This document shows positions 4 through 64,000 of a stretch of 64,000 nucleotides of DNA, one piece after another. Position 1 is the first letter of the stretch, and the number at the start of each line of letters is the position of its first letter. A program made the position numbers and the translations under genes. The notes under the pieces are model-generated. The model was not told the origin of the DNA. It saw only the letters and a program-made list of their open reading frames with translations, and ran no database searches. The DNA is from a virus, in the IMG/VR virus record IMGVR_UViG_3300044614_000912, positions 32,001-96,000 of that record. One strand, given 5' to 3'.

Positions 4-291
4 ATGACCGAATTATTGACCTATTTAATATGCTGTTTAGGTGTATCTTATGGATGGAGCGACACAGAAGCTAGTCGCCCTATAAGAAATCAAATAGCAA
101 AATTACCTTATATTAATAAACCCTTATTATGCCACGAATGTTCTAGCTTTTGGATCAGCTTATTACTTAGCGTATTTATCAATCCATTGGAATCATACTG
201 TTGTCCAGTAGTTAGCAATGTGTTGAGTGCTTTCTGTGGATTCTTCGTTAACTTATATTTCACAAGAAAACAGATAATACCATACCTATAA
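4..291 (+). CDS. small membrane protein, DUF1360-like
   Basis: Hydrophobic segments flank a CxxCxSFW motif (CHECSSFW) resembling DUF1360 phage membrane proteins. Confidence 0.45.
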   Translation: MTELLTYLICCLGVSYGWSDTEASRPIRNQIAKLPYINKPLLCHECSSFWISLLLSVFINPLESYCCPVVSNVLSAFCGFFVNLYFTRKQIIPYL

Positions 292-301
292 GGAGACTAA
301 C

Positions 302-526
302 ATGGCGATAACAACAGTAGATGTAGTAACAAATGTGGTGAGTGGCAATGAATCCCAAAAAACTGGCACAGTAGTGGTATGCTGCCAAAGAACGGGTACA
401 TTTGATACTATCAACCCAACATACGAAAAGAATATATCTTATAATACCCTAGAAGACAGATATACCGATAGATTTGATGATGTAACATACTACACCGTTG
501 GCACTAACACAATAGTAGGTGGTTAA
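302..526 (+). CDS. hypothetical protein
   Basis: AGGAG RBS upstream, abuts the next gene, no recognisable motif. Confidence 0.6.
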   Translation: MAITTVDVVTNVVSGNESQKTGTVVVCCQRTGTFDTINPTYEKNISYNTLEDRYTDRFDDVTYYTVGTNTIVGG

Positions 527-2233
527 ATGAGTATTAAACGAATAAAAGACTTTCCAGATGGAAGCGGTTCATTGTCCAATGACGATATTATGTTATTTAT
601 GGATAGCCCATCTGGTAGTGGAGTTACTAAAAAAATCAGTCTTAGTCAATTAGCTACTGTTATCGGCGGTGGAGGTGGAAGTTCATTTGATCAAGATTTG
701 AATACAACAGATACCCCTACATTTGTTGGTGTAAATCTATCAAACGGAACCACTCTAGCTCAAGGAACTTTTGACAACTCAACTGGTGGTCAAAGTGGTA
801 TCAGTTTGAATTGTTATGTTGGCTATGAGTTGAATTGGCAAGGCGGTCATTTAAAAAGTACCACTGATGGAGGCTCAACAGCAGCTAACATTTGGTGTGA
901 TTCTTCATTAGAATTTCCCGGCGTCGGGACTTCTAACATGGAAGTCGGTGCCAAAGGATTAACTTTTCCAGACGGAAGCATCCAAGTAACATCTAGCGAT
1001 CCTATGACAAAAGGACCACAACAAAACCCACTTGGCATGGCCCGAATTGTAACAATTAGCACTAGCGAATTTGTTGCATACGTAAAATCTACAACCGGAT
1101 ATATTGGTGTCCGCTCATGGGATGGAACTTTTACTCTATTTGGCGACGGTTCCGACATTACTCATTACATTACATTAAGTATTCCATTAGAAGGTAGCTG
1201 GAGTGGTCCTTCTCCTAAAGAAATTTTTATTTGGAGTACTGATAGTAGCGGTCTAAGCCAAGACGGCGACTTAACATGGATAAATGTTAGCAATTCAAAT
1301 AATAAGGTTACTGCTCTAGACATTAGTGGCTTGAATGCACTTACTAATTTATATTGCGCTAATAACCTTCTCACATCGCTCAATCTCAGCGGATTGACAG
1401 CGCTTACTCGTCTAGAATGCAATAATAATTTTCTTACCGCATTGGATATTAGCGGTCTGACAGCATTAGATACTGTATTTTGTTATAACAACTCAATTAT
1501 TACTAGATTGAATGCGAAGGGAGCCACATCGCTGACCCATTTGCGTTGTTATAATAATTCCATCACATCGTTAGAACTTAGCGGAACAGCTTTAGAAATT
1601 CTATTGACCGATAGTAATGCCCTTGTCGAGTTAGATGTTAGTGAATTAACAACATTAGAGCAATTGTCATGTAATAATAATTCTCTTACCTCATTAAATG
1701 TAAGCGGATTAACATCACTAGGTTATTTAGACTGTTCTAATAATTCTCTCGCCACACTGAATGTCGGTGGATTGACAGTATTAGGTATTTTAAATTGCTC
1801 TAACAATTCCATTACTACATTGAATGTTAGTGGATTAACGTCACTAAGTAACTTAAATTGTTCAGATAATTCAATAACATCTATAAATGCAAGCGGGGCA
1901 ACTTCATTGAGTAGTCTAAATTGTGCTAATAATTTTATCGTTTCTCTAGACGTTAGCGGATTTACAGCGTTAACGACTCTATATTGTTCGGATAATTCCC
2001 TTACTTCGTTACGTGCTACTGGTGTTGCACTTGGAGGGTCTTCGGGCTATACATATGGATTGATTTATGGAGGAGATATAAGCGATAATTCTTTATCTGC
2101 GGGAGCTTTGAATCAATTCTATTCCGACCTTGCTTCAAGTGCTGGCTTTTTGAATGTTGCTAACAATCCCGGTACAAGTAGTGATAACCCCACTATTGCA
2201 ACAGCCAAGGGTTATACTGTCTACGGAAGTTAA
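527..2233 (+). CDS. leucine-rich repeat protein with virion-attachment-like N-terminus
   Basis: About 12 21-residue repeats LxxLxCxNNxLxxLxVSG (IRREKO/InlJ-type LRR) at ~1270-2020; N-terminus IKDFP...DDIMLFMD...TKKISL resembles tail-fibre anchor motifs. Confidence 0.85.
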   Translation: MSIKRIKDFPDGSGSLSNDDIMLFMDSPSGSGVTKKISLSQLATVIGGGGGSSFDQDLNTTDTPTFVGVNLSNGTTLAQGTFDNSTGGQSGISLNCYVGYELNWQGGHLKSTTDGGSTAANIWCDSSLEFPGVGTSNMEVGAKGLTFPDGSIQVTSSDPMTKGPQQNPLGMARIVTISTSEFVAYVKSTTGYIGVRSWDGTFTLFGDGSDITHYITLSIPLEGSWSGPSPKEIFIWSTDSSGLSQDGDLTWINVSNSNNKVTALDISGLNALTNLYCANNLLTSLNLSGLTALTRLECNNNFLTALDISGLTALDTVFCYNNSIITRLNAKGATSLTHLRCYNNSITSLELSGTALEILLTDSNALVELDVSELTTLEQLSCNNNSLTSLNVSGLTSLGYLDCSNNSLATLNVGGLTVLGILNCSNNSITTLNVSGLTSLSNLNCSDNSITSINASGATSLSSLNCANNFIVSLDVSGFTALTTLYCSDNSLTSLRATGVALGGSSGYTYGLIYGGDISDNSLSAGALNQFYSDLASSAGFLNVANNPGTSSDNPTIATAKGYTVYGS

Positions 2234-25873: not shown

Positions 25874-27434
25874 TTTGGATTATAACGATAAGGCCACTTG
25901 GCAACTATTCGCAGAGGGTAAAACTAAGGGTATTTTCCAACTAGAAAGTAATCTTGGTAAATCTTGGGCTAAGAAGTTAGCACCAACCAATATCGAAGAA
26001 TTGTCGGCGCTTATCGCTATTATCCGACCGGGAACGCTCAAGGCTTATGTCGATGGTAAAAGCATGACGCAACACTATGTTGATAGAAAGCACGGGCGAG
26101 AAGAAGTCACGTATCTTCATCCCGCCCTAGAAGACGTTCTCAAAACAACGTATGGCGTTCTTGTGTATCAAGAACAGTCCATGCGTATAGCAGAAAAGAT
26201 TGCCGGATTTAATCTTCAAGAGGCAGACGTTCTTCGTAAAGCTATTGGCAAGAAAAAGGCTGATCTTATGAATGAAGTTAAAAAGTCTTTTATTGCTGGG
26301 GCTGAACGTGTAGGCATAGTCACCAAGGAAGAGGCAGAGCAAATATTCGGATGGATTGAGAAATCGTCTAGATATGCTTTCAACAAGTCACATAGCGTTT
26401 CATATGCGGTTTGTTCATATTGGAGTGCATACTTTAAGGCGCATAATACTTTAGAATTCTTTTTGTCATATCTCTATTATGCTAATGAAAAGCAAGACCC
26501 TCATCAAGAAATATATGAGCTAATATCTGAGGCAAAACTATTTGACATTCAAGTTAAGACCCCAAGCTTGGCTAATTTTGATACCAAGTTCAATATTCAA
26601 AAGAACAAGATATTTTTTGGAATTAAGGATATCAAATCTCTTACCGGTAAAACGGGCGATAAATTGATAGAGGCTATAGGAACATCAGAAAAAGAACTTG
26701 GCAAGAATATTACTAAGTTTACATGGTTAGAAATTCTGCTATTTCTTAGTCCTTTAGTTAGTTCAACAGCGTTTAAGGCACTGGCTTCCATAGGATTCTT
26801 TAGGGGTTTTGCGGATAAAATTACTAGAAATAAAGCCCTATATGACTATGATATTTTTAAGACCTTAACCAAGGCAGAACAAACGTGGATTCAAACCCAT
26901 TACAAAGATAAGAACTGGGGTTCATTTATTGAATGCTTGAAAGACCTAGCACCAACTAAGAAAGAGGGCGGTGGTACAAGCAAAGTTGATAGAAAACAAG
27001 CTATAGAAAATGAAATTCAGCTTTTAATCAATCCGCCATATGACCTAGAAGACGATCCAGCATGGGTTATAGATCAAGAAGTCAAATTCTTAGGTTGTCC
27101 AGTTAGTATGACAAAAGTTGAAACATCAGATACATCCGCTGCTAATACCACATGTAAAGAAATTGTGAATGGTAAAAGGGGCAAAGACTTATGTATAGTA
27201 GCAAACGTACAGCGTGTTTCGGAATACAAAATAACCAAGGGTGAATCCAAGGGGCAAATGATGGCCTTTTTAACAATAGAGGACGATACTTGTATGCTAG
27301 ATAGCGTAATTGTTTTCCCTAAAGTAAAAGAAAAGTACAAGTATGTCTTATATGAAGGTAATAATTTGATATTTTGTGGCTCAGTTGGTGAAAATGATAA
27401 TTCGTTTATAGTAAACCAAATACATGAAGTTTGA
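25863..27434 (+). CDS. dnaE: DNA polymerase III alpha, C-terminal half (fingers, HhH, OB)
   Basis: GIFQLES, IRPG, TYGVLVYQEQ, ADVLRKAIGKKK, YAFNKSHS, IFFGIKDIK, MAFLTIED; ATG 25863 after GGGGA. Confidence 0.93.
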   Translation: MLNDLDYNDKATWQLFAEGKTKGIFQLESNLGKSWAKKLAPTNIEELSALIAIIRPGTLKAYVDGKSMTQHYVDRKHGREEVTYLHPALEDVLKTTYGVLVYQEQSMRIAEKIAGFNLQEADVLRKAIGKKKADLMNEVKKSFIAGAERVGIVTKEEAEQIFGWIEKSSRYAFNKSHSVSYAVCSYWSAYFKAHNTLEFFLSYLYYANEKQDPHQEIYELISEAKLFDIQVKTPSLANFDTKFNIQKNKIFFGIKDIKSLTGKTGDKLIEAIGTSEKELGKNITKFTWLEILLFLSPLVSSTAFKALASIGFFRGFADKITRNKALYDYDIFKTLTKAEQTWIQTHYKDKNWGSFIECLKDLAPTKKEGGGTSKVDRKQAIENEIQLLINPPYDLEDDPAWVIDQEVKFLGCPVSMTKVETSDTSAANTTCKEIVNGKRGKDLCIVANVQRVSEYKITKGESKGQMMAFLTIEDDTCMLDSVIVFPKVKEKYKYVLYEGNNLIFCGSVGENDNSFIVNQIHEV

Positions 27435-49563: not shown

Positions 49564-52500
49564 TTATTTTCCTCTGATTCTTAGATTGAGATTATCAGAA
49601 TAACTTCCTACCCCACTAGCCATGAATAACATTAATCCAGACTCGGATACAATTATTGGGTCTGGAGTATGTACGTATAATAACATTCCAGATGGCTCGT
49701 TGGAAATTATTCCATCGACGGAGCTAGTGTACAGTCCTAAATCATTATACACATTAATTATGCTGTCTACACTAGTAAATAGATTGATATTCCCAGATGC
49801 ATTTTGTGCCCCATCGGTAAATAGGGGTAAATTACCGCTATTTGGAATTCCGAAGAAATAGGTGCCTTCTACAGATTTAATATATGGTCGATGTTCGATA
49901 AAGCCCTTTAATACTGGGTCTTGTCCAGATGCTTCTACGAATATTTCACCTTGATAATTACTATATATGATACCAGTTGCTTTATATTCCTTATTGGCGT
50001 CCAAATTATTCTTGAAAGACAAGAAGATTGCTGGATCGCCAGATGCATTTGTTTCTCCAAAGAATTTGGCGTCAATAAATGAATCTGGACTTTGTATGGC
50101 TGGAGCTTGACCTCTTAACATAATATCAGTGATAAATGCGGCACCAGCGCCGGTAACAAATTGATCGTAACTTAGAGGTAATCCAAGTTCATCATAAGCA
50201 TATTGTTCTCTATTTGATGTTTCGCTATGCGATCCACCAATAATTGTGTAATCAGCATCTGTTCGTTTTGATCTATCTAAAGCGACTGATTCTCCAAATC
50301 TGTCAGAAACGTCTGTGCCATATAATGTATACTCATGGTAAAATGGTGCGTTTTCTACTAGTTTTTCTACATAAACCCATTCTTGCTTCTTGGTGGGCCA
50401 ATCTACTATCTTGTTTTCAAATGTAAAAATAGCACCCATATTTATAATAGTATTAGCATTTACAATTGATGGATCGTAGGTATTTCTTATTCCAGAATTG
50501 CCAAGATCAATAACGGCCCTAGATGGAATACGGAACTCTGGATTGAAACATCTTCTAATAAAATCTCCAGAGCCATTAATGACATAGTTGCCATAATCAT
50601 GACCCGGAGCGCCGATAGCAATAATATCTCCGTCTATATCTATATCGCTACCAAATTTATCTCCCATAATTTCAATGCCAGAATTTGATCCAACATTGAT
50701 ACTATCTGGTCTTAACTTTTGAGTAAATGACCAAGGGGTAAATGTACCATGTAATCCACTGCCCTTATTGTTTCTTTCAAATAAATATGCCGCTCCAGCA
50801 CCACCATTATATGATAGTTCTATACCGGATGTTGATCCTCCATCTAATATATAATCCCAAGAAGATATTTCTTCTCTAGAATAAGCACTGAATGGTGAAC
50901 CGACAACAAGTTTATTTTTGTATAGTGCTACAGAATAACCGAATAGATCGCCGGGGAATCCAGATTGTGTGATGTCAAAGTCAAGGTAATCATAACCTTT
51001 TTCTTTCATTAAATCTGGCATACCGCCACCAATGCCAGCATCTCTATAAAGCTTACCGTCGATAACGCCACTGAACATAGCGGTTGCACCGTGAGATGTT
51101 TGTATGCCCTTAAAGCCGCTTATAATACCCTGTTTGATGTTTTCAATTTCTTCCGAAGTTGCACCATCGGGCCAAGGATTCTTCTTGGGGCGTTTAACAA
51201 ACTTGGGATCATATCTAGATTCTTTATTAGAAAATGATGATAATCCAACGGGCGATCCAGCAAAATCACCAAACAAGTGAGCCAAGCCGCTATTATTCAC
51301 AATACTTCTATACTTTTGTGGACTTCCTCTTTCTGGGGGCATAATCTTAGTCATAATAGTATACTGTCTTCCAGAATTTGTATCCGGCCAGTTAGTATAA
51401 GGATAGAGGCTTCTTAAGAATCTCACAGTTTCAGAACTCATGCGGAAGTTATCATCTCCCATGCATTGACCTTGAACAAGGCTAGAATCAGAAATTAAGG
51501 TAATTCTTGATCTTGCTACTCCTGTCATGAATTGTGAAAAATGTTCGATTTCTTGTGCTACTATTACAGGACCGTCTGCGATTTGCTTGTGACCGAGTGT
51601 ATCTTCACATCCATCAGCGCAGTAAACGGTATTGTCATTTAATATAGGCGATACAATAACCTCTGTTAAGGTTTGTGCTGGTTGAGGATCAGAAATACGA
51701 TAATATTCATTTCTATCAAACACTTGATAAAATTCTGGTATTCTTACTGTTTCTATTGGTACTAATACTCCAGAAATACCCAATAATCGCGTTGTCTTTG
51801 GTATATAGGAATTTGTTTTAACGGATAACCTTTCATTGTTATTCGCTATATAGAAATTGATTGTTGATGCTTCTCGTATAACCTGTGCATCAAATGAATA
51901 TGTTACTGGTTTATTTTCTATGCTATAGGTGGCTCTTCGTAAGTTTCCTAGTTTATCAACTGAATATCCAGCACCCAAATCATAACCAAATAATCCTTCT
52001 GTATCTGAATCTGATGGATTAGTAGTAATTCTCATGTTAACATTTTGAGTGGCGATAAATAGGTCTTCTGTTTCAGCCGGTGTTTCTGATATTGTGGTAA
52101 TGAAAATCTTATAACCAGAACCGGGAAGTGCAGGAAAAGAAACCTTAGTTACGCCAGATAATGACTTCCAATAACCATTTGTAATAAATTTCTTATCGTA
52201 GATTGGTCTATAGTCATAACATACTGGAACAGTATTTTCCACTAGTGCTATTGGCGTGAATCTACTTTGTGATACAACTTCAAAATATTCTATAGATGTA
52301 TTTACATTCCATCCTGTAGATACTGGGTGAATAGAATTAAACTCTAGAGATTCAGCGCCATCAACGACCGCATATTGATCAAGTACTGGTAGATATAATG
52401 GTTTAATTCTGCTACCAATCATATCAGATAACTGTTTAGCCAACAGAACCTGTGAGATATTATTGTCATATGTAATGATAAGCTTTTTATTTGGTCCGTT

Positions 52501-55500
52501 TAACCAAGATAGAAGATCGGTAAGTTCTTGTTGTGATGGTAAACCAGCGGGATTTGCTATCCAGCATACATCGTATTGATCTAACAGTGTGATTACATTC
52601 TCATCTACTGTGTTGCCAACGTTTTGAAATAAGTTAAACAAAAACGAATCTGGATATGCATCAATGAAACTAGTTCTCTTTGTCCAACCACCTAATTGTG
52701 CAATTAAAGATTCACCGTCTATCGTTCTACCAACTAGATTGGCGTAAAAATTAATATTTTGATCGCCAAAGCCAGAATATAGATTATTTTCTGATTCGGT
52801 GAAAACACCCGCTATGAATACCAACTTAGAAGATTTGTTAGCTAATGTTTCTTCAACGCAATAATATCCACGATTAGAAGCAATTTGTTTGTCTTCTAGA
52901 ATTTCGGATTGAGGAATCGCATTAGCCATTATCAATGATTGTCTATCATCAAAAATTTCTGGAGTGTAAAATAAACCATTAGAATTAATTTGACCTTCAT
53001 TAAGATTCAAATAGGATGATGTATTCTCGCCAGAATTCCAAATAAATGCTACGCTAGATGGTGATATAGGAGCATCAAAAATAGTTTGGAATCTAGACTC
53101 TTCTACAGTCCTATATACTGGATATACTCCAGACACGGCTGGGGATGCTGGTATATTTGTTATTTTTGTCACATAATCGCCAGCCACTATCAATGGAACT
53201 GGTTCTTGCTGTGGGAAATCAAACGGTCCAACTTGCGGAACACAGCACGGTGGAGAATATGTTCTAAACATGTAAGCCCAATTTACTGGATAATATACCC
53301 ATTGATCTTTACAGTTTTTGCATCTATCTGTCCACTCTGCTCTAAGATCGCCTAGATGCTTGAGTGGTAATTCGCATTTTTCATTAATAACTTCAAATGC
53401 TGACTCTCCAGAATCTATCAATTCTGATGGTAAAGCATCATTTTTAGATGTACATGGCATAAACTGGGCAAATTCTGGACTGTCTTTTAAGTACATGCGA
53501 ATATCAGCAACGCCATAAGCTTTTGTGGTGATCGGCTCAATATATGATGGGGTTGTGTTACGCGGTATATAAGATGGTAGAGCCATTGAGCATCCAGAAG
53601 ATAAAGCCTCATAAGAATTTCTGGCAGGATATAGTCTTAATCTAGACTTGACTCTATCCAAAATCTTATTTATAATGCTGTTGGATGTTTCATATATTCC
53701 ATTCTTTTCCCATATTGGATCGTTTCCAACCAGCACAAGATTTCTATCTCCTAATGCTAGCCAATTAAGAATGTTGTCTGTGACTTCATCGCTTAAAGCA
53801 TCTACTTCTGGAGTAATAATGAATGCTAAACCCGCCTCTTGTGGAATATTAACTTCTGTAAATTCTGTCTTTCTGAAGTTCATGTCGCTAAATGCTGAAG
53901 CAAGATAATTGAAATGACCAGAATCTTCTGGAAAATCCATACTTTCTTGTAGATTTCCAAATTTTCCGAATTCTACGACACTATTATGTGGGTAATATTT
54001 TCTAGCTTCAAACAATCTGACGGCACCGGCATTTGTACTATTTATCCAGCTTGGACTAATTAGATTAGTATTTAGATTTTCATCATTATTTGGATCATTA
54101 TATCCTTCATTTTTATACCAAACATTTCCATCTTCCCATTCATTAAAGCTATCAGTTGGGGCACCAAATGCAACAACTGTGCCATCTTCATTTACAGCAA
54201 CGCTATAACCCAATCTTGATGTAGGAGCAAAATGTTCTGGTATGAAACTCCAAGTACCAAAATTATAACTGATATTGCCATATCCATATGTGTAGATATT
54301 TTGATACTCTTGAATATTAAGATATTTTCTAGCTTCAAATTTTTCAGTTGAATCTAGTTTGGAATAAAGGATTTGATTTGCGTATTCTATTCCATAGGTA
54401 TTCGACCATATTGCATAATCGGTGATCATATTCCTATATCTAGCAAATAAACCTCCAGTAATGGCATTTTTGTATCCAAGCCAAGAAAATAGACCAGCAT
54501 AGAGTCTATCTTTTTCTTCTGGCTTGTACTCATAAACCTTACAAGCTTCTGAAATGTATGGCGATCCAATGGCGATGACTTCTGTATCATCACTAATTGC
54601 TACTGCATGTCCAAATCTGTCTGGAATACCATATGTTATATTTGGAGAACGTATTTCTTGAACAAGATTCCATGCGCCGCTTTCTTTTTCAAATACATAT
54701 ACTCTGCCGCCGCTTTCTGGAGGATAATTAAACTGTGATAGATTTTCATTAAAGAATTCCTGACCAACTCCAGATGTAAGATACTTGACTTGATTGTTGG
54801 ATACAAGTCTTCCTGTATCAAGAACTTCCCCAAGAATAGTTTGGGACATGAATACCCAATTTTCTGCCGCACCAAAATCAGATTGATATTCTACAAATGC
54901 TCCAGAGCTTTGAATTCCATAAAAATCTCTTAATCCACTAGCAAAGCTATAGTTTAGATAATAGTCTCTAAACATATTTTTAGCCTTACCCAACGCACCA
55001 CGCATAGAAGCACTATCATCAACATACAATCCTAATATTGGTGGAATATTATTATGAATTTTTGTCTCATCGTATGGGAAAGCCTCATTAAAGGCTTCTT
55101 TGATACCACTTAAAATTCTTTCATTTTGTTCTGGAGTTGGGATTCCTTTTACTCGTTCAATTTGTTTTTTGATGATAAAATTTGGTTTTGGTTCTGGAAA
55201 CTCTTTAACGGTGACATTAGTAGAATTCTTAGTTGGTTCACAAATAATTAGTTTAACGTCAAAACGAATTGGTGGTTCAGCAAAATATCTAAACAATAAG
55301 TCTTTGTTGTATATGGTGTCTAGTATGTCTTCGTAACTGTAATTTGGTCGTGGTTTTTTACCGGGGGCTGGTATAACTGGAGTAAATTCGTCAGTAAAGA
55401 TCATTACTCCGATTTGTACGCCGGATGTATATAAATCCTCAAAATCTCTTTGCCATTTGGCACTAGGACCACCAACTACAAGAACTTCTCGTTTATTTTC

Positions 55501-58500
55501 TCCAAATGATTTATGAGTATCTGAAGCAGCTATATCAAGACTATGGCCGAACTGTCTGCCTTCTTGACCAACATTCCATTTTCTTTGAATCACAGTGGCT
55601 GGAAGTTCGATATTATCAATCTTGTTGGTTTCAATTCTATCATAGTAATCTTTTCTTAAACCAGATGGTAGATATAATCTTTCTTCCAGATACCAAGGCG
55701 ATTTTTGCGTTCCATCGGGCCAACTATATCCACTTGGTCTATTATCTCTTCTAAAGATATAAACAGCACCGGCTTCATCTAATGTACTAGTTACAAGGTT
55801 GCCACTAGAATCATATTCTGTATATGTAATATCATGACCGGGAGCGCCTATACAAGCTAGATTATTTTTGACTGCAACAGATTTACCAAATTTTTCATTG
55901 ATTTGCCTTAAAGTAGAGCCTTGGTTACTATTTGGTGAATCAGCAGTAAGTTTTCTATTAGTATAATTTGTATAACCATTATTTACTACTAGATCGTTAA
56001 CAACTATTTCATCTGTTCCATATTCGCTTTCGATATATTCTGTTGGTAATTCTATAGTATTTTTACTTCCTGTCTTACCAATTACATTAACAAAGTATGG
56101 AGCCTGTGGTATAAGATTTGTGTACTTTCTAAGCCCGTAGAAGTGTCCACTATATCCAATTTCTGTCTTAAATCCACTTGTTTCCAAATTAGTGTATGTG
56201 TTCTTCGCTCTGAATATTCCTCCGTCAACGCAATCATTTGGTGTTGACCATATATCTTCGTGTAGAACAACTGATTCTTCTGTGCAGGAGCCAACATTTT
56301 GACAATTACCATAGCATAATAGTTCAACACCGCGTATTTCATCGTTTGCTTCTAGATAAGCATATCTATTGTCATCAACAGCAATATTCTTGCCGGGATA
56401 ATCACTATTCCAAGTAATTGTGTATTGTTGTGAGCCGGTGGCGCTGAATGCTGGATAATTAACCAAGAATAGATTTACAGATGAATCTATATTTGTTACA
56501 TCGAAATCTTTGCCACTAATCCATAGATTCATTCTTTCGCCGCCATCTACCAACGAAACTGGTACTGGTGGAGAATTTATGAACATTGGCATAGCTTCTC
56601 TATAAATTACAGATACCCTCAATGGAGAAGCTTGCATATGCATAGTCATAGAAGAACTATTGCTCTCTATGAGTCCTACGCTCTTAGTAAAGAGTTGAAT
56701 AGAACCGCTAGCAGATTGATCTTCTATTCTATTTGTAATTGTAATCGGGAGAATTTGTTCATCGAATTTGTTATATCTACCAGACACATATAAGTTAGGG
56801 CCAAGATAGTAATCCTCACCGGCGGTGGCACCAAATAATTGAGAAGTAGAACTATTAACAGAGCCTTTATTAAAAGTGAAGAGTCTAACATTTTGTGGGG
56901 TAGCATAATACGCTGAACCAATGAACATATTAACATTATCAGAGCTAACATCTGGCAGTGTGCCGCTGGTATAAAGCTGGAAGTCATCAGCAATAGTTCC
57001 GCGACCATAAACATATAAGTTAACGTCTTCTAGCCACTTCTTTTCTCCGTTTGAGAATAGATTTAGTGAAGTATTAACATTTTCTTCTGATATCAGCGCA
57101 TTCTCTAGTCTTACATTGGCTGAGTGTAATTTAATTCTTGATTCAAAAGGCGAACCAGATGGATACACTAAATCATATTGTAAGTACATCTGATTAATAT
57201 CAGTGGAATAGTACTTAGTATCAAATTCTGTAATGCTTCTTTCTACATCAAAATTTGCCCAAGGCTCAGATGTGTCTATCAAATCTTGGTAAGTAAATTT
57301 GCTAGAAATCTTCTGCCAGCATCCAGATGGTTCTAGATAATGAATTGCTCTATTAATCAAACCCCAATTTCTCTTACTTGGAGCATAAGATGGGTCTTGA
57401 CTTGGGGTATACAAACTTACTATAAGTTTAGGACCGATATCTCCATTAGGCCAAATGATGTTATTAAATGTTTCGTGTTCTAAAATTGTGTCAACTACCA
57501 ATGCATCTTCTACAAAATTATATCCCCTCGGCAATGTCTTAGAAATTCTTGGATGTGCAGAGTAAAAATTGCCACTCGATGAAACGTCTGATAAGTATAG
57601 TCTTAAAAAGTCATTCTCTATTTGCGTGTGATATGCTAATCCAGAAGCCAATACATTAGAAGGTAATGGTAGGTTTGTTATTTGTGAATATCCAGAACCA
57701 TGATGATTAATACTATGTAGTATATAATCTCTTCCAACTCTTTGAGTTAAGAAATCAAAGTCTGGTGAGAACTGACAAACTTTAAAATCACCTAAATGCC
57801 AACTATCTGTATCTTCTGATACCAATGTATTAAGAATATTTCTATCATCATGCCATGATTCATTAGATGACCAATACTTATTTCTTTGTGATGCAAAAAA
57901 TGATGGTACATCCGACGCCTTATAGAAACTATCTCTAAATCCTGTCTTGCTAGTAGATATAGCCCCACTAGACTCTGGATACGAAATGCTAGAGAATGGA
58001 GTAAATCTTAAATTAGTCCTGTTATAAAATAAATTGCTTTGCTGAACTATAGCTTTATTATGTGTTGATATTCCAATTTCACTAACAAACATATTTAATC
58101 CGACACCAGATGCTGGACAATGACCAATCAATAAATCATTATTACTTGGATTAAAAGATACTATTCTTAGATTACCAATACTTCCGAAAGGAGCAATAAA
58201 GCCTCTATTTAATGTCCAAGCACCTTGAGAAATTTCATTATCGGTATACAAAAACATGGAATTTGCCACGCCTAAAGAAGCATATGGTTCTTTGAATGTA
58301 ACCATAGCTGACATGGGGAATTTGTATGCTGAATAATGTGCGGAATCTCTAGCCTTTAACATTACTCCAGAAATATAAGCATAAGCACACAAATGACCAT
58401 TTTCATATCCAAGAACAAAACCTTGCTGTGAACCAGCATCCCACTGAGACATAACAACGCCAGAATTGATTAAATTAAAGTTTGATCCACTTACTGGTAA

Positions 58501-61239
58501 GTCCGGTGAGAATCTAATATAAAAAGCAAATCCTTTAGAAGTATCAACTTGACCAAAATTAATATAGCCATTTACTCCAGAAGTTCTTATGGCACTGTCA
58601 AAGTTATCGCCAATTTTTCCATATAATGGATCGTCTACAAAATCAACCGATCCATTGGATAAAGAAGTCCAATCTGTTGTCTTGTATGGTGAAGTAAAGC
58701 CCGGTAGTTGATTAGCAAATAAACTATTGCTATCGAATCTCCATCCGATATTCTTAACTAAACTCTTTACATAATCACCGGTAAATGTACCGCTTAAACC
58801 GCCTAAGTTAGCTCCTAGTGGTACTGATAAGATATTATTTCCACTATTGCGGGTGAAATTATAAAATCCTTCTAGGAATGGGTACTCTATAGTTGGATTA
58901 AAATAACCATAATCAAATTGTGCAGCATTGAAGGGGCCGTTTGTAATAGAGCCATTAACACCAACCCACCGCTTAGAGTAATTTGTTTTGATCGAACTTG
59001 GAGAAGTAAATGCGTGTGGTAAATTTTCTAGTCTGGATATTGGGCCATATTCGTCGCTTGTATTGAATATACCATCTACAGACTGTCTTGTAGTCGGATA
59101 TATTTTAACTTTTCTTCGCGTTAGCTCTTTTGAACCTTGAGCGAATGTATGCAACATTAAACCATCAGATGGCTTATACTTCACCACCAGTTGGACGGTC
59201 GAAATAGTTGCTCCACTAGGAATAGGATATAAATCAAGAAAGAGATTTTCAATATATGAACTGTTTCTGTAATCGGTTGATTTGCCTAATAAAACTGGGT
59301 CTTCATAAATTTTAAGTGGAATATTATACTCTTTGAAGCTAGTCGAATTGATCAATGGAGTTCTAGTTAATTCATAATGATCTTTAGCTGGATTTAATGT
59401 GATATCTCTAATATAGACTTGATCTTTTTCAGAGATAGATATGCTTGATATTCCCAAATCATTTATATGCTTAAAGCCAGAAATTTGTGGAGTAAAACCG
59501 TCTTGATTAGCAATATCTACTATTAGGTAGTTGGACTCTGATGCTATAAAATTTGCATCTTCATCTCCAAGATAAATTATTTCTGCATCGTTTTGTAAGA
59601 ACGCACCTATCTTGGGAGTTCTATTTAATAATTTATCGTCATTGTATCCAACAACGTCTAAAGCGTAATCTGCTGACCCTACTGCTTTTTTAGCAATAAC
59701 TTTGAGATAGACTTCATCAATAATAAAGAAATTGTCGTTTTCTTTAAGAGAAACTACTTCCGATGTATTATAATTTTTGCCTTGGAACGCACCCTTAAAT
59801 GGTCCGTTCGATTCTGCCCAAACAGATTTAGGTGGGAGGTTGGTAAATCTAAGTGTTAATCTACCACTATCTATGTGCGGCGTACTAGAGAGTAGTTTAA
59901 TATAGTGAAATGGATAATCATCTTGAAGCCTTGATGCTGTTAAAGCTGGTTCTGTGAGACTATTATCTGTATTACCATATGAATCTGGATTAGATTCCCA
60001 TAAACTATAAGCTTCTGGATAAATATCAACATCAACATCACTAGCAATCATATCTATTGGAACAATATACTTAGTTAATCTTTGTCCAATTGGGGCAACA
60101 TCAGTATAGAAGGGTATATAATTATCTCTTAAAATTCCAACGCCGCTAGAAAATACAACGTCGTATCCTCCACTATTACATATTTCGATAGCAGATATTC
60201 TAATACTATTTTCTGGAGTAAGAGCAAAGCTTAAATTCTTGCTAGCATTTGCTTGTTCGCAAGATTCTTCGTACCCGACGTTAAATCCATCAGAAAATGG
60301 ATCATAAAAGCACTGAGTATCAAAATCCAAATTTAATAAATAGCCACTAGGATATCCCATTAGTGGATAACCAGACTGCCAAGTGTGTAGCAATAAGTTG
60401 TTTGTCTCTGGTTCAGAGATATATGTAGTAAAATTTATATCATCTAATTGATAGTCTGCATCTCCTCGTACAAAAATATCCTTGTACTTGATAACGGTAT
60501 TACCGCTGGGGTCAAGCAGTTTTATATTATGAATTCTATACTGTGGCGGTATATCAGATGACTTTGTGTATGTTGGCGCGGCGGCGCGAAGAAAAACAAA
60601 ACTATTTTCAGCATTATCAATGGGCCTAGTAACTTCACATGTATATCTAAAATCACCATCACTCATCGTTGAAGATGGTTGAATATATGAAAATTTTTCG
60701 TCTGCTATGATCTTACTATTTTTGCCATTCTTAGTATAGTTACCAATAAATACGCCTTCATCAATATTAGAAAATAGATTGGTTGTGCTGTTTAACTTAT
60801 CAACAAAATAACTATTGTTTAGTGATGTAACAATGTCTTTGATTGGATATAATTTTTGGGTTGCTTGAAAATTATCAAAAGCATTTAATGTGCCAAAATT
60901 ACCAGCAAACTTATCAGTTTTGACATCATTTATAAGACTAGTGGCGGATACTCTAGAGCGTAAATTTCCATTTAATTGTAGAGTTGCTCTAATATCTCCT
61001 ATGCCAGAATCTTGTAAGGCTTGTAAACCTATACTTAACTGAGCCTTGCTTCTGATAGCGCCTTCGCCGGATAATATGGCCGGTGTGATAGCTCTTAATG
61101 AATTACTGGCAACAATTTTACCAACTCCACCAATTCTCATGGTTGGTGAATGATTAATAGTAGCTCTTGCGACAAAGTTACCGGCGGAACCGATTCTACT
61201 AGATTGATTTGATGTACAAGAAAAACAAACTTCACTCAT
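49564..61239 (-). CDS. giant virion adhesin-like protein (3891 aa): LamG-like domain, 7 FG-GAP repeats, MIDAS-motif insert
   Basis: Uninterrupted ORF; seven FG..V...GAP-type repeats at ~50130-55890; ConA/LamG-like segment ~58066-58590; DDSAS at 55006-55020. Confidence 0.8.
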   Translation of the reverse strand: MSEVCFSCTSNQSSRIGSAGNFVARATINHSPTMRIGGVGKIVASNSLRAITPAILSGEGAIRSKAQLSIGLQALQDSGIGDIRATLQLNGNLRSRVSATSLINDVKTDKFAGNFGTLNAFDNFQATQKLYPIKDIVTSLNNSYFVDKLNSTTNLFSNIDEGVFIGNYTKNGKNSKIIADEKFSYIQPSSTMSDGDFRYTCEVTRPIDNAENSFVFLRAAAPTYTKSSDIPPQYRIHNIKLLDPSGNTVIKYKDIFVRGDADYQLDDINFTTYISEPETNNLLLHTWQSGYPLMGYPSGYLLNLDFDTQCFYDPFSDGFNVGYEESCEQANASKNLSFALTPENSIRISAIEICNSGGYDVVFSSGVGILRDNYIPFYTDVAPIGQRLTKYIVPIDMIASDVDVDIYPEAYSLWESNPDSYGNTDNSLTEPALTASRLQDDYPFHYIKLLSSTPHIDSGRLTLRFTNLPPKSVWAESNGPFKGAFQGKNYNTSEVVSLKENDNFFIIDEVYLKVIAKKAVGSADYALDVVGYNDDKLLNRTPKIGAFLQNDAEIIYLGDEDANFIASESNYLIVDIANQDGFTPQISGFKHINDLGISSISISEKDQVYIRDITLNPAKDHYELTRTPLINSTSFKEYNIPLKIYEDPVLLGKSTDYRNSSYIENLFLDLYPIPSGATISTVQLVVKYKPSDGLMLHTFAQGSKELTRRKVKIYPTTRQSVDGIFNTSDEYGPISRLENLPHAFTSPSSIKTNYSKRWVGVNGSITNGPFNAAQFDYGYFNPTIEYPFLEGFYNFTRNSGNNILSVPLGANLGGLSGTFTGDYVKSLVKNIGWRFDSNSLFANQLPGFTSPYKTTDWTSLSNGSVDFVDDPLYGKIGDNFDSAIRTSGVNGYINFGQVDTSKGFAFYIRFSPDLPVSGSNFNLINSGVVMSQWDAGSQQGFVLGYENGHLCAYAYISGVMLKARDSAHYSAYKFPMSAMVTFKEPYASLGVANSMFLYTDNEISQGAWTLNRGFIAPFGSIGNLRIVSFNPSNNDLLIGHCPASGVGLNMFVSEIGISTHNKAIVQQSNLFYNRTNLRFTPFSSISYPESSGAISTSKTGFRDSFYKASDVPSFFASQRNKYWSSNESWHDDRNILNTLVSEDTDSWHLGDFKVCQFSPDFDFLTQRVGRDYILHSINHHGSGYSQITNLPLPSNVLASGLAYHTQIENDFLRLYLSDVSSSGNFYSAHPRISKTLPRGYNFVEDALVVDTILEHETFNNIIWPNGDIGPKLIVSLYTPSQDPSYAPSKRNWGLINRAIHYLEPSGCWQKISSKFTYQDLIDTSEPWANFDVERSITEFDTKYYSTDINQMYLQYDLVYPSGSPFESRIKLHSANVRLENALISEENVNTSLNLFSNGEKKWLEDVNLYVYGRGTIADDFQLYTSGTLPDVSSDNVNMFIGSAYYATPQNVRLFTFNKGSVNSSTSQLFGATAGEDYYLGPNLYVSGRYNKFDEQILPITITNRIEDQSASGSIQLFTKSVGLIESNSSSMTMHMQASPLRVSVIYREAMPMFINSPPVPVSLVDGGERMNLWISGKDFDVTNIDSSVNLFLVNYPAFSATGSQQYTITWNSDYPGKNIAVDDNRYAYLEANDEIRGVELLCYGNCQNVGSCTEESVVLHEDIWSTPNDCVDGGIFRAKNTYTNLETSGFKTEIGYSGHFYGLRKYTNLIPQAPYFVNVIGKTGSKNTIELPTEYIESEYGTDEIVVNDLVVNNGYTNYTNRKLTADSPNSNQGSTLRQINEKFGKSVAVKNNLACIGAPGHDITYTEYDSSGNLVTSTLDEAGAVYIFRRDNRPSGYSWPDGTQKSPWYLEERLYLPSGLRKDYYDRIETNKIDNIELPATVIQRKWNVGQEGRQFGHSLDIAASDTHKSFGENKREVLVVGGPSAKWQRDFEDLYTSGVQIGVMIFTDEFTPVIPAPGKKPRPNYSYEDILDTIYNKDLLFRYFAEPPIRFDVKLIICEPTKNSTNVTVKEFPEPKPNFIIKKQIERVKGIPTPEQNERILSGIKEAFNEAFPYDETKIHNNIPPILGLYVDDSASMRGALGKAKNMFRDYYLNYSFASGLRDFYGIQSSGAFVEYQSDFGAAENWVFMSQTILGEVLDTGRLVSNNQVKYLTSGVGQEFFNENLSQFNYPPESGGRVYVFEKESGAWNLVQEIRSPNITYGIPDRFGHAVAISDDTEVIAIGSPYISEACKVYEYKPEEKDRLYAGLFSWLGYKNAITGGLFARYRNMITDYAIWSNTYGIEYANQILYSKLDSTEKFEARKYLNIQEYQNIYTYGYGNISYNFGTWSFIPEHFAPTSRLGYSVAVNEDGTVVAFGAPTDSFNEWEDGNVWYKNEGYNDPNNDENLNTNLISPSWINSTNAGAVRLFEARKYYPHNSVVEFGKFGNLQESMDFPEDSGHFNYLASAFSDMNFRKTEFTEVNIPQEAGLAFIITPEVDALSDEVTDNILNWLALGDRNLVLVGNDPIWEKNGIYETSNSIINKILDRVKSRLRLYPARNSYEALSSGCSMALPSYIPRNTTPSYIEPITTKAYGVADIRMYLKDSPEFAQFMPCTSKNDALPSELIDSGESAFEVINEKCELPLKHLGDLRAEWTDRCKNCKDQWVYYPVNWAYMFRTYSPPCCVPQVGPFDFPQQEPVPLIVAGDYVTKITNIPASPAVSGVYPVYRTVEESRFQTIFDAPISPSSVAFIWNSGENTSSYLNLNEGQINSNGLFYTPEIFDDRQSLIMANAIPQSEILEDKQIASNRGYYCVEETLANKSSKLVFIAGVFTESENNLYSGFGDQNINFYANLVGRTIDGESLIAQLGGWTKRTSFIDAYPDSFLFNLFQNVGNTVDENVITLLDQYDVCWIANPAGLPSQQELTDLLSWLNGPNKKLIITYDNNISQVLLAKQLSDMIGSRIKPLYLPVLDQYAVVDGAESLEFNSIHPVSTGWNVNTSIEYFEVVSQSRFTPIALVENTVPVCYDYRPIYDKKFITNGYWKSLSGVTKVSFPALPGSGYKIFITTISETPAETEDLFIATQNVNMRITTNPSDSDTEGLFGYDLGAGYSVDKLGNLRRATYSIENKPVTYSFDAQVIREASTINFYIANNNERLSVKTNSYIPKTTRLLGISGVLVPIETVRIPEFYQVFDRNEYYRISDPQPAQTLTEVIVSPILNDNTVYCADGCEDTLGHKQIADGPVIVAQEIEHFSQFMTGVARSRITLISDSSLVQGQCMGDDNFRMSSETVRFLRSLYPYTNWPDTNSGRQYTIMTKIMPPERGSPQKYRSIVNNSGLAHLFGDFAGSPVGLSSFSNKESRYDPKFVKRPKKNPWPDGATSEEIENIKQGIISGFKGIQTSHGATAMFSGVIDGKLYRDAGIGGGMPDLMKEKGYDYLDFDITQSGFPGDLFGYSVALYKNKLVVGSPFSAYSREEISSWDYILDGGSTSGIELSYNGGAGAAYLFERNNKGSGLHGTFTPWSFTQKLRPDSINVGSNSGIEIMGDKFGSDIDIDGDIIAIGAPGHDYGNYVINGSGDFIRRCFNPEFRIPSRAVIDLGNSGIRNTYDPSIVNANTIINMGAIFTFENKIVDWPTKKQEWVYVEKLVENAPFYHEYTLYGTDVSDRFGESVALDRSKRTDADYTIIGGSHSETSNREQYAYDELGLPLSYDQFVTGAGAAFITDIMLRGQAPAIQSPDSFIDAKFFGETNASGDPAIFLSFKNNLDANKEYKATGIIYSNYQGEIFVEASGQDPVLKGFIEHRPYIKSVEGTYFFGIPNSGNLPLFTDGAQNASGNINLFTSVDSIINVYNDLGLYTSSVDGIISNEPSGMLLYVHTPDPIIVSESGLMLFMASGVGSYSDNLNLRIRGK

Positions 61240-61241
61240 TA

Positions 61242-64000
61242 TTAGACCTTTGGCATAGTTGATGAATTTTCTATGAGTTTTCCACCAGAGCCGACGCTGG
61301 TATTTTTGATCTTATCCGAGACAATTTTTGCAATTTCATTTCTTGCTTCCTGCGTTAAACCGGCAAGCATACCGCTATTTCCAGAAAAATTTACATTTAC
61401 ATTTGTACTATCTAATGTAATCTTAAATTTTGTATCTTGAAGAGATTTAATAGTATCCGACATTTGAGAAGTAAATGTCGTTAATGCCTTGGTAAGCATA
61501 GAGATAACGTCTGTACCAAGAATATTCTGGACTATTCCGTTTAATAATCCTCCTCCAGCTAAATATTGTACTTTTCCGCCCCTAGCAAAGTTTTGAACAC
61601 CGGCTGATGCTCCCGCTGAACCGCTTAGACCATTATTCATAGCTTGTAATAGTTGTAGATTGTTACCTCTATTTACAGCTTCTCGTCTTACAACGAACTC
61701 TCCGGGTGTTAACATTGCGGGAACGGTATCTGTTCCACGGGGAACGAAGATACCCCTACTTGCATACACGGTTCCGCCTTTTCTGAACATTGTAGGCTCA
61801 CGGCCTCTACCGGCAGCTTCGGCATCTCTAGATGCTCTTTCATCTTCTGCCGACTGTTTAACCTCTGGAGCCATTCCCCTATCCCTAGTATTACTAACGG
61901 CTTCTTCGGCCTTCTTTTGAGCGGCCTGTAACTGTATATTTGCGGCATCTAGTTGTGACTGAGCAGCTTGAACTTGTAAATCGGCGGTTGGACCCATAGT
62001 GCCAGCTAATGCACGTATATCGCTCTTTACTGCTTCTTCTTCTGGAGTGGTTCCTGCTAGCATTTGTGCTGCGGCTGGATTCTGAACACCTCTGGCCGAT
62101 AATGCGGCTGTTGCAGCTTTCTCACCCAAACCACCCGGACCAGCAATACGTTGACCGTATATTTCTTGAACGCCAGCTTCTTTTTGTCTTTCAATATCAG
62201 AATAAGCACCAGCCAATGCTGTGGCACCAAATGCATTCATAAGGTCTTGATTACCAGTTGCTATTGCGGCTGTAGCTCCAACGGCGGCTTGTTGATCAAA
62301 GAACTTCTCTATATCGCCATTTATTAGCGATTCCATAGACTGTTTCTCAAGCTTATTTTTCTCTTCTATAGTCTTGAGTTCTTCTTCTTTGGCTTTAATC
62401 AAATCTCTAGTGGTTTGTATTTGACTCTTAGCTGCTTCGTTGAGTCTTCTTTCCTCTTCTTCCAATTGTAATCCAGCTTCACCAGCCAATTTAGCTTGAG
62501 CTTCTTTATCTCCACTTGCTGCCGCAGCCCTAATGCCCGCTATTTCTTGCTGCCTTGCTCCAATTTGCTGTGTTCTTTGTGTGATTTCAGCAGCACTTCC
62601 TGTCTTGAGATTATCAACACCTTGTATTCCGGTTGCTTGAACATTAGCTTGTGCTACAATATTAGCTCGTCTTTCTGCTGGCGTGACAGCTTTGCCGCCG
62701 TATTTTGCTTCAATATCTCTTGCTTCCATCTGCACATTTAAAGCCTCTTGCTGTGCAGACATTAAATTGCGTTCTGCTTCTATTCTATTTTTAGTAAGCT
62801 GATTAAGTTGTTCTTGGATTTTTATTGCATCATTAAGTGGGCCGTTAACTTGCTCAAGAACTTTCTTGCCAAAATCACCCATAACCTCAGAGAAAACTCC
62901 AAAGTTACCTTCTCCAAGAGCGTTGAGTTGATCTTCTGATAATGTATCGGCCTGTGCCTGTAAACGCTTGATAGTATCGTCATCATATTTTCTATTACCA
63001 GCAGCATCTGTTTGAGCAGCAAGATTTTTACCAAGAATATCCTTAAAAGCTTTTCTTCTATCTTCTGCGCTACCGGAACTCAATCTTCCCTTAAGATCGC
63101 TCTTTGTTTGTTCAAAAATAGTAGCGGAATTCTTTTGAACTTCGTTAATAGATTTGAGATTACCCTTAAACTTATCAATTTGTTTATCATTTGCTCCAAA
63201 TCTTCTAAGGGTTGCTTCAGCATCGCCAAGGGCAGCGTCAAAATCAGCATCGCTAATGCCTTGAGCAGCAGATGTTACGCTGGCTTCAAGTGTAGCTAAA
63301 GATTGTTGTAATGGTATATTGCCAGCCTGTTGAGCAGCAATATAGTTAGTTATACCAAGTGCTGCTGCGGCAGAAGCACCTTGAACGTCTTGCATACCAA
63401 GGTCCATAGCTTCAAAAGCTTTTCTAGTTCTTTCTGCCTCCTTTTGTAAATTCTCAAAAGATTTATCAAGCTCTCTGGCTTGTTCTTCTAATACGGCGGC
63501 TTGTTCTCTAAATGCATTAGCTTCGTCTTTATTACCAGCAGTATCAGCTTCTGATGCTTTTATTCTCAATTGACTCATTCGACTTCTCATAGCACCCGGA
63601 GAATTAGCACCTAATTGAGCATCAATTTGCTCACGGGTCATGCCTTGAGCGATACCACGCTTCATGCTTTCATTGACAACCGGCCTAGAAATATCAAAAG
63701 CCTTTCTTTCAGCTTCCGCGTTTTGTTTTATTAATCCGGCATTCTCTTTATCGATTCTTTCATTTCTTTGTTTGCCAGATTCTAAGCCAAAATATCCAGC
63801 TAAACCTAGTGTTGCAACTCTAGCTGTACCACGCAAGAAGCCTCCAACAGCCCCGCTCTTATTGCCCTTGTTAGATTCAACAGCTTTTTCATTGGCAGTT
63901 TGCATCGCCTGTCTTGAAGCTTGTACATTAGAAATTTTAGCAAGAGCTTCACCAGCACTAATCGTTCCATTTTGTAAATCTTCTAAAGCAGAAGAAGCGT
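61242..64000 (-). CDS. tail tape measure protein (5' end outside the window)
   Basis: Ala/Gln/Glu-rich helical sequence, C-terminal GTDTVPAMLTPGEFVVRREAV; frame stays open to the window edge. Confidence 0.85.
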   Translation of the reverse strand, partial: ASSALEDLQNGTISAGEALAKISNVQASRQAMQTANEKAVESNKGNKSGAVGGFLRGTARVATLGLAGYFGLESGKQRNERIDKENAGLIKQNAEAERKAFDISRPVVNESMKRGIAQGMTREQIDAQLGANSPGAMRSRMSQLRIKASEADTAGNKDEANAFREQAAVLEEQARELDKSFENLQKEAERTRKAFEAMDLGMQDVQGASAAAALGITNYIAAQQAGNIPLQQSLATLEASVTSAAQGISDADFDAALGDAEATLRRFGANDKQIDKFKGNLKSINEVQKNSATIFEQTKSDLKGRLSSGSAEDRRKAFKDILGKNLAAQTDAAGNRKYDDDTIKRLQAQADTLSEDQLNALGEGNFGVFSEVMGDFGKKVLEQVNGPLNDAIKIQEQLNQLTKNRIEAERNLMSAQQEALNVQMEARDIEAKYGGKAVTPAERRANIVAQANVQATGIQGVDNLKTGSAAEITQRTQQIGARQQEIAGIRAAAASGDKEAQAKLAGEAGLQLEEEERRLNEAAKSQIQTTRDLIKAKEEELKTIEEKNKLEKQSMESLINGDIEKFFDQQAAVGATAAIATGNQDLMNAFGATALAGAYSDIERQKEAGVQEIYGQRIAGPGGLGEKAATAALSARGVQNPAAAQMLAGTTPEEEAVKSDIRALAGTMGPTADLQVQAAQSQLDAANIQLQAAQKKAEEAVSNTRDRGMAPEVKQSAEDERASRDAEAAGRGREPTMFRKGGTVYASRGIFVPRGTDTVPAMLTPGEFVVRREAVNRGNNLQLLQAMNNGLSGSAGASAGVQNFARGGKVQYLAGGGLLNGIVQNILGTDVISMLTKALTTFTSQMSDTIKSLQDTKFKITLDSTNVNVNFSGNSGMLAGLTQEARNEIAKIVSDKIKNTSVGSGGKLIENSSTMPKV

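Follow-up and report, generated by a model that had tools for sequence, protein, structure and literature searches.

The virus record IMGVR_UViG_3300044614_000912 is 132,557 bp long (37% G+C), and its bases 32001-96000 constitute the window of 64,000 nucleotides that was analysed. Unless stated otherwise, positions refer to this window. Its minus strand carries a single open reading frame (ORF; 49564..61239) that codes for a protein of 3,891 amino acids (aa), the giant tail protein (P0001). All features of central interest are encoded within this one ORF, namely seven FG-GAP motifs as well as the motifs IFTDE and LYVDDSAS, which are located in an insert within the second FG-GAP repeat. An earlier inspection of the sequence (the original prediction) had proposed an integrin-alpha-like architecture: a seven-bladed FG-GAP propeller with an inserted von Willebrand factor A (vWA) domain, which carries a permuted metal-ion-dependent adhesion site (MIDAS).

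The seven FG-GAP motifs start at residues 1784, 1897, 2209, 2343, 3433, 3529 and 3648 (window positions 55890, 55551, 54615, 54213, 50943, 50655 and 50298), all within a few bases of where the original prediction had placed them. The pattern [FLYW]G.[SAD][VLI][ADS][VILM] has seven matches in the 3,891 aa, and these are exactly the seven blades. The Pfam family FG-GAP_2 (PF14312) matches the protein in four stretches with 63.7 bits (cut-off 23, E=1.8e-17). Thus, the repeats are not due to chance. The same family is matched in all ten homologues that were scanned. When the entire protein is scanned against Pfam at E<=1, FG-GAP_2 is accompanied by an RHS match at 0.62 and by nothing else. We also built a hidden Markov model (HMM) from the seven blade cores. 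Their recovery with this HMM is by construction; the informative result is that no eighth blade was found in a search run with --max and with domain E values up to 1000.

The blades share a common pattern, in which the FG motif is followed by a GAP-like strand, a G.VY.F-like strand and a W-containing strand. They were delimited by motif and blade HMM, except where indicated, and like all other parts of the giant gene they are encoded on the minus strand. Blade 1 covers residues 1781-1858 (55666..55899; FGKSVAV, CIGAPG, GAVYIF). The first two strands of blade 2 are residues 1894-1926 (55462..55560; FGHSLDI, VLVVGGPS), while strands 3 and 4 are residues 2176-2199 (54643..54714; GGRVYVFEKE, WNLVQEI). 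The latter were recognised by the sequence pattern common to the other blades and have a low pLDDT (predicted local distance difference test) when folded without the propeller. Blade 3 (residues 2206-2339, 54223..54624) has a loop of about 95 aa following its third strand and is adjacent to blade 4 (residues 2340-2435, 53935..54222). Blade 5 (residues 3430-3525, 50665..50952) is additionally defined by a two-chain model (see below). Blade 6 (residues 3526-3644, 50308..50664; FGSDIDIDGD) contains the best FG-GAP_2 stretch (3526-3549), and blade 7 covers residues 3645-3712 (50104..50307). Repeats 4 and 5 are about 1,090 residues apart, a gap which the original prediction left unmentioned, as it did the fact that all of these features are parts of one gene for 3,891 aa.

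No contiguous stretch of up to 1,200 residues includes all seven blades. Because of this, the model of the closed ring was computed from two separate chains, one comprising residues 1760-2436 (blades 1-4 and the small insert in blade 2) and the other residues 3415-3735 (blades 5-7), each with a 20-row family alignment. The interface score ipSAE was 0.79, 0.78 and 0.78, while the best of three controls reached 0.00; the mark applied to this score is reached by 116 of 157 solved complexes and by 2 of 215 mismatched pairs. The model runs share at least 68% of their contacts, with a partner pLDDT of at least 61. There are two contact areas. The first two strands of blade 4 (2342-2363, 2398-2411) lie on the first two strands of blade 5 (3428-3448), with an expected error of 0.8-1.0 A. 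Blade 1, together with residues 1760-1766 (55942..55962), lies on blade 7 (3650-3673, 3695-3704). Residues 1760-1766, taken from the interface list of the two-chain model, are possibly the closing strand of the propeller. The contacts between blades 4 and 5 and between blades 7 and 1 match the needs of a closed ring. A failure of the repeats to close into one propeller, which had been named beforehand as the outcome that would speak against the architecture, was not seen. The seven blades are thus predicted to form one closed propeller from a block of four and a block of three.

The chain leaves the propeller for the first time within blade 2. Elements 1 and 2 of this blade are found at residues 1897-1926 and elements 3 and 4 at residues 2176-2199, so that the small insert (residues 1937-2175, about 240 aa, 54715..55431) exits between strands 2 and 3. 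The original prediction of an alpha/beta insert of about 250 aa in repeat 2 is borne out by an AlphaFold2 model of residues 1930-2190 (37-row alignment), in which the insert is a three-layer alpha/beta domain with a pLDDT of 88.6 and a predicted template modelling score (pTM) of 0.85. The order of elements is b-a-b-b-a-b-a-b-a-a. Strands were assigned to residues 1939-1948, 1991-2001, 2022-2026, 2068-2073 and 2114-2119; one helix each follows the first, third and fourth of these strands, and two helices follow the fifth.

The two motifs that had attracted attention are located at strand ends and at the places claimed for them. IFTDE (55387-55401, from residue 1947) runs out of the first strand, directly after which T-D-E-F is found (residues 1949-1952, 55384..55395). 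LYVDDSAS starts at residue 2071, and its D2074-D-S2076-A-S2078 (55006..55020) directly follows the fourth strand. In the family alignment, all 20 of 20 sequences have D2074, S2076 and S2078. In a set of 41 representatives with less than 45% identity, D-x-S/T-x-S/T/G is present at 2074-2078 in 40, and the remaining one has E for D. Around the first strand, F1952 is conserved and D1950 is mostly kept (N or S in some members), while T1949 and E1951, as well as D2141 and T2142, are variable in the 41 representatives. The frequency of DxSxS in the whole protein is at chance level (three copies against 2.3 expected), and only the copy at 2074 is conserved. It is therefore only conservation and strand-end placement which make this motif notable.

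Outside its own family, the small insert is hardly matched by sequence. A profile search for stand-alone relatives (113-436 aa) in 5.8 billion proteins gave two matches among 2,613 candidates, both being fragments of the same family. In the Protein Data Bank (PDB), the best phmmer hit has an E of 0.52, a transaldolase match in the profile search (E 0.043) was rejected as a chance hit, and the profile of the whole protein found nothing below 0.067. The ESM Atlas returned no usable match for the insert and Foldseek no match against PDB at E<=1e-3. The VIA fold searches have 3rag_A as their top match (Z 8.8-9.0, root-mean-square deviation (rmsd) 3.8-3.9, 161-162 of 232 residues aligned). This is about 2.7 Z units above the next row, and generic Rossmann-like chains have Z values of up to 6.5. 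3rag is an uncharacterised protein (Aaci_0196) from Alicyclobacillus acidocaldarius with 11% identity to the insert; a literature search for 3RAG/Aaci_0196, judged by title, found no relevant paper among those listed. The best rows in the viral library BFVD are a Myoviridae protein that is likewise uncharacterised (E 3.7e-3) and a virion structural protein of a cyanophage (probability 0.97, TM 0.33). As modelled, the small insert is a Rossmann-like domain that is specific to this family and carries a conserved Asp/Ser site.

The original prediction had gone further and assigned the insert to the vWA domains, but no support was found for this assignment. Pfam VWA (PF00092) has no match to the giant protein at E<=1. 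The VWA HMM also found nothing in the six frames of the 132.6-kb genome at E<=10, whereas all 14 control genomes were positive. A profile of 189 insert sequences was compared by hhalign with six genuine vWA domains from two bacterial metagenome-assembled genomes (MAGs), which resulted in a probability of 1.05% (E 0.051), with only the DxSxSM strand being aligned. Leave-one-out controls among the vWA domains reached 95.9, 94.6 and 32.4%, while unrelated domains of the giant protein gave 0.1-1.0%. Fold searches, as suggested along with the original prediction, returned 3rag (Z 9.0) and generic Rossmann-like chains but no integrin I-domain or vWA chain among the matches listed by Foldseek against PDB and by both VIA searches; by the tools' own rule, absence from the listed matches does not rule out a family. 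Across all fold searches, vWA is represented by a single row, a VWFA protein of Yasminevirus in BFVD (E 0.049, probability 0.20). Membership of the small insert in the vWA family, as judged from sequence comparisons, is thus unsupported. A MIDAS-like site in the insert is possible.

The chain leaves the propeller for the second time between blades 4 and 5, and here a large insert of 980 aa (residues 2436-3415, 50995..53934) is found, which was not mentioned in the original prediction. It is modelled with a pLDDT of 75.7 and a pTM of 0.42, the latter as expected for a multi-domain chain, and it appears to consist of nested domains. The clearest fold matches (VIA) are to GIFT and class I glutamine-amidotransferase-like (GATase1-like) domains: 5fms_A, the N-terminal GIFT domain of IFT52 (Z 12.1, rmsd 3.3, 186 aligned), 3rht_A, a GATase1-like protein (Z 11.7, rmsd 4.8, 205 aligned), 2gk3_A, STM3548 (Z 11.5, rmsd 3.1, 184 aligned), and a ThuA-like protein (Z 10.5, rmsd 3.3, 181 aligned). 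Many of the Z values for this insert are in a range that the tool deems common. The GIFT/GATase1 matches have a model range of about 4..847 and thus involve both ends of the insert. From this range we infer that a first piece (residues 2465-2585, 53485..53847, matching 5fms_A) and a last piece (residues 3219-3282, 51394..51585, with RITLISDSS) form one DUF4350-like domain, which is itself interrupted. Pfam DUF4350 (PF14258) scores 23-25.7 bits at the same place in four of ten homologues, below the cut-off of 30.4 bits, and has no match at E<=1 in the giant protein itself.

Between these two pieces, fold matches point to a jelly-roll region similar to carbohydrate-binding modules (CBMs) at residues 2725-3161 (51757..53067). 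It resembles 5w6h_A, tailspike 4 of phage CBA120 (Z 9.5, rmsd 2.9, 134 aligned), CBM4-2 (4bj0_A; Z 9.1, rmsd 3.0, 141 aligned) and 7xyc_A, the tail fibre gp52 of Klebsiella phage Kp7 (Z 8.1, rmsd 3.5, 142 aligned), and further CBM and phage tail-fibre chains have Z values of 8-9.5. Eph ligand-binding domains and CBMs were also matched at model residues of about 290-726, with probabilities of up to 0.99. The jelly-roll region is in turn interrupted by a second alpha/beta domain (residues 2805-2945, 52405..52827; pLDDT above 90). Based on an hhalign probability of 99.7% over 69 columns, this domain is a paralogue of the first GIFT-like piece. A paralogy between the small insert and the two alpha/beta domains of the large insert was ruled out (hhalign probability 0.0-0.2%).

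The propeller is flanked by an N-terminal module and a C-terminal tail. The N-terminal module (residues 1 to about 1640, 56320..61239) has no family match in Pfam or PHROG, and for residues 1-1750 the ESM Atlas gave only weak leads, to ConA-like/Laminin_G_3 viral proteins with scores of 0.87-0.90. The C-terminal tail (residues 3713-3891, 49567..50103), delimited by sequence and family alignment, ends in a conserved LNLRIRGK. Motifs of the N-L-x-x-S-G and L-x-L-x-x-x-G type occur at residues of about 1390-1600 (56400-57100) and again in the C-terminal 150 residues (49567-50103). A Cys-rich stretch is located at residues of about 1630-1680 (56200-56350), before blade 1; C1646 and C1670 are invariant, C1642 and C1652 nearly so, and the stretch might form a small knot of the disulfide or metal-binding type.

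The tape measure gene is found upstream of the giant gene and on the same strand, with a gap of 2 bases between its end and the start of the giant gene. Its 3' part is located at 61242..64000 and the full gene, coding for 2,397 aa, extends past the window end (93242-100435 of the virus record, G000). It matches several tape measure families, among them phrog_28 (E=5.6e-23) and phrog_4211 (E=7.2e-23). The usual rule is about 1.5 A of tail length per tape measure residue, by which the tail would be roughly 350 nm long. Genes for the major head protein, the protease and the large terminase are located further upstream, the terminase having at most 26.6% identity to those of Bacillus siphoviruses. 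With the tape measure gene upstream and head genes beyond it, the giant protein is a tail-module product of a large long-tailed phage. Its gene immediately follows the tape measure gene within the tail module, as is the case for siphovirus tail-tip proteins. The original prediction had described this position as unusual. While the position itself was confirmed, the slot right after the tape measure gene is normally occupied by tail-tip genes in siphoviruses, so that it is not an unusual one. The giant protein does not match any of the Dit or Tal families in Pfam and PHROG. Downstream of it, ORFs of 557, 113, 1,579, 1,187 and 237 aa follow, none of which has a match to PHROG or Pfam.

Replication genes occupy the other half of the window. 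On the plus strand, a DNA polymerase III alpha homologue is encoded at 23116-27434 in two ORFs, with PHP and NTPase domains at 23116-24720 and the finger domain at 25833-27434, and two small ORFs (24707-25192, 25193-25873) separate them. Also on the plus strand, positions 527-2233 code for a protein of 568 aa with leucine-rich repeats (LRR_4, E=1.6e-22), which is unusual for a phage replication-side module.

Relatives of the propeller region are numerous. At E<=1e-3, 421 proteins of 2,140-6,810 aa were found among 6,708 candidates, and an exhaustive search at E<=1e-30 resulted in 81 clusters at 50% identity. All relatives come from metagenomes, where the contigs that carry them reach 167 kb, and none of the GenBank phage records matches. 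The gene order, with a large upstream ORF, the giant gene and a gene for 519-583 aa, is also found in four related contigs (L003, L004, L011 and L012). The identity of the flanking genes was compared in L003, where the upstream ORF is 36% identical to the tape measure protein and the next gene is 42% identical to the 557-aa ORF. The giant gene is fused in L011 (3,875 aa), while in L012 (5543-16956) it is divided into two ORFs, of 1,519 and 2,284 aa, which abut each other. This break is located about 140 residues ahead of blade 1 and just ahead of the position of the Cys-rich stretch. The 1,519-aa ORF has 39% identity to residues 13 to about 1,490 of the giant protein and corresponds to its N-terminal module. 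Since the 2,284-aa ORF is separate, the propeller half constitutes an independent module. Two homologues have additional domains: P0077 an RCC1-like propeller near its N-terminus (E=1.4e-47) and P0095 a Laminin_G_3 domain near its C-terminus (E=1.6e-24). These extra modules, recognised by sequence, would be consistent with a modular host-binding protein. The only matches in the genome collection are two MAG contigs, L003 and L004 (152.7 and 56.7 kb), which are labelled SAR202 and Verrucomicrobiales and share the run of tail genes, the tape measure being confirmed in L003. Both look like phage contigs that were binned with those MAGs, so that their labels are no indication of a host.

The layout invites a comparison with integrin alpha chains that contain an alpha-I domain, such as alpha-M and alpha-L. 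In both cases there are seven FG-GAP repeats and one propeller (predicted for the phage protein), the second repeat is interrupted by a looped-out alpha/beta domain of 200-250 aa, and blade 7 is in contact with a strand that immediately precedes blade 1. There are also clear differences. The integrin insert is located between blades 2 and 3, whereas the phage insert is found between strands 2 and 3 of blade 2 and is not detectably a vWA domain. In addition, the phage protein has a second insert, the 980 aa between blades 4 and 5, and its propeller is part of a tail protein of 3,891 aa. The integrin calcium loops (Dx[DN]xDGxxD) have no match in the 3,891 aa, the DIDIDGD of blade 6 being shorter than this motif. 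Neither leg domains nor a membrane anchor nor integrin families (Integrin_alpha2 and relatives) were found with Pfam at E<=1. The integrin-alpha-like architecture of the original prediction thus stands for the arrangement, with a predicted seven-bladed FG-GAP propeller and an alpha/beta insert in repeat 2, but does not extend to the protein itself: the resemblance to I-domain integrins is confined to the layout, and the giant protein is not an integrin.

Several other systems share individual features. Bacterial and other FG-GAP_2 repeat proteins belong to the only family matched above threshold, and hundreds with 6-31 repeats appear as weaker matches; here, however, a phage tail protein has exactly seven of them, divided 4+3 by the 980-aa insert. 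The GIFT (IFT52/GldG), ThuA-like and class I glutamine-amidotransferase-like domains resemble the predicted outer domain of the large insert in fold, but the phage domain would be interrupted by about 630 residues of other domains, and the DUF4350 scores in homologues are sub-threshold. Phage receptor-binding proteins with CBM-like jelly rolls or propellers (CBA120 tailspike 4, Kp7 gp52) are comparable in jelly-roll fold and tail-module position. There is no sequence similarity to them, and the domains of the giant protein are nested in a propeller rather than strung along a fibre. A literature search, judged by title or abstract opening, found no paper on phage tail FG-GAP propellers.

We think that the giant protein is probably a tail-tip scaffold, in which a single propeller displays looped-out domains that bind to the host surface. 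Residues of about 1760-3712 would form one seven-bladed FG-GAP beta-propeller that serves as a rigid scaffold, and the chain would exit from and re-enter this propeller twice. At the first exit, which lies in blade 2 after its second strand, it would present the 240-aa Rossmann-like domain with D-x-S/T-x-S/T after strand 4 and the mostly conserved Asp after strand 1. At the second exit, between blades 4 and 5, it would present the 980-aa nested module, with the GIFT/GATase1-like domain, CBM-like jelly rolls and the second alpha/beta domain. As to the virion, we infer a location at the tail tip, an adhesin role, and host surface molecules, probably glycans, as ligands of the looped-out domains. 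An adhesin role, as assumed in the original prediction, is plausible because the large insert has CBM-like and GIFT-like folds.

A number of observations weigh against this interpretation. The adhesin role is derived solely from gene position and fold likeness, and the small insert may be catalytic or purely structural. Beyond FG-GAP, the giant protein is devoid of Pfam and PHROG annotation, and a phage collection with 50,697 records contains neither a DNA match nor a protein match to the propeller region and thus no relative. Closure was modelled from two chains rather than one, with a partner pLDDT of only 61-67; solved FG-GAP propellers exist, so that the good score may partly reflect likeness to them and not this protein's own behaviour. 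The jelly-roll and Rossmann-like matches have Z values that are common according to the tool's own notes.

Three other explanations were weighed, which differ in what they attribute to the inserts. They might be structural, attaching the giant protein to further copies of itself or to adjacent tail proteins, while the host is recognised by others, e.g., the 1,579-aa and 1,187-aa products encoded downstream. The small insert lacks relatives outside the giant-protein family, as expected for a domain that co-evolves with its partners; in IFT52 and in GH42 enzymes, GIFT/GATase1-like domains serve for interaction or oligomerisation; and several more large tail genes are indeed found downstream. The CBM-like jelly rolls, with their matches to phage tailspike and tail-fibre domains, argue in the other direction, being typical of binding modules, and the strand-end position of invariant polar residues would point to a site for a small ligand rather than to a protein interface. 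We regard a structural role as rather unlikely. The small insert could also be an enzyme, such as an esterase or deacetylase that acts on host surface polysaccharides, in which catalysis would involve Asp2074 and either Ser2076 or Ser2078. Such enzymes are often carried by phage tail proteins, the Asp/Ser motif is invariant, and Foldseek ranks metal-dependent deacetylases (HDAC8/10) and carbohydrate esterases of the SGNH type (2wab, 4dev) highest, at TM values of 0.31-0.36, normalised to the query. All of these matches, however, have E values of at least 0.014 and an rmsd of 10-18 A, Pfam hydrolase families are without a match at E<=1, and neither a triad-like conserved His nor a second acidic residue of this kind is conspicuous among the invariant columns. 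A catalytic insert is thus very unlikely.

The insert in blade 2 might, finally, be a true MIDAS-type metal-dependent ligand-binding domain, either vWA-derived or convergent, with its motifs swapped between two central strands. Propeller and insert would then be a functional analogue of the integrin alpha-I head. Like a vWA domain, the insert is a three-layer alpha/beta domain with D-x-S-x-S after one strand and T-D after another, and h-h-h-h-D-x-S-x-S-M/L and h-h-h-F-T-D-E at its strand ends match the hhhhDxSxSM and hhhhTDG of the six genuine vWA domains. The D-x-S/T-x-S/T motif is conserved across the family, and hhalign places LGLYVDDSASM on the DxSxSM strand. The element order b-a-b-b-a-b-a-b-a would be compatible with a doubly wound sheet, in which strands 1 and 4 are adjacent. 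The motif order is reversed, though, with T-D after the first and DxSxS after the fourth strand, and the residues which would complete a MIDAS are not conserved: T1949, E1951, D2141 and T2142 vary, and D1950 is replaced in some members. The VWA HMM does not match, the hhalign probability is like that of unrelated domains and unlike that of the vWA controls, DxSxS is as frequent in the protein as expected by chance, and the Yasminevirus protein is the single vWA row among the fold searches. When 176 insert sequences (effective number 143) were subjected to a mean-field coupling analysis, only two pairings were prominent, strand 2 with a C-terminal strand near 2154 (rank 1) and strand 1 with strand 2 (rank 3); the analysis gives no support to a pairing of strands 1 and 4 (rank 226), but is too weak to settle the sheet order. 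Taken as a whole, a MIDAS-type insert appears unlikely. It is tempting to speculate that a widespread lineage of uncultured aquatic phages has independently reached the layout of I-domain integrins, with propeller blade 2 presenting an alpha/beta domain whose D-x-S-x-S and Asp form a metal-ion-dependent adhesion site on strands swapped relative to vWA, and with attachment being cation-dependent; we consider this scenario quite improbable.

A tail-tip scaffold with looped-out binding domains is thus our preferred interpretation. The analysis provides a domain map for a giant unannotated tail protein, which is common to a large and diverse group of uncultured phages. A propeller that acts as the hub for looped-out, binding-type domains, with several levels of nesting, would be an unusual build for a phage host-recognition device. 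The conserved Asp/Ser site is a concrete target for mutational analysis. Metal binding at this site, if it occurred, would make the protein a clean case of convergence with the head of integrins; otherwise, it would still be a useful example of extreme domain nesting.

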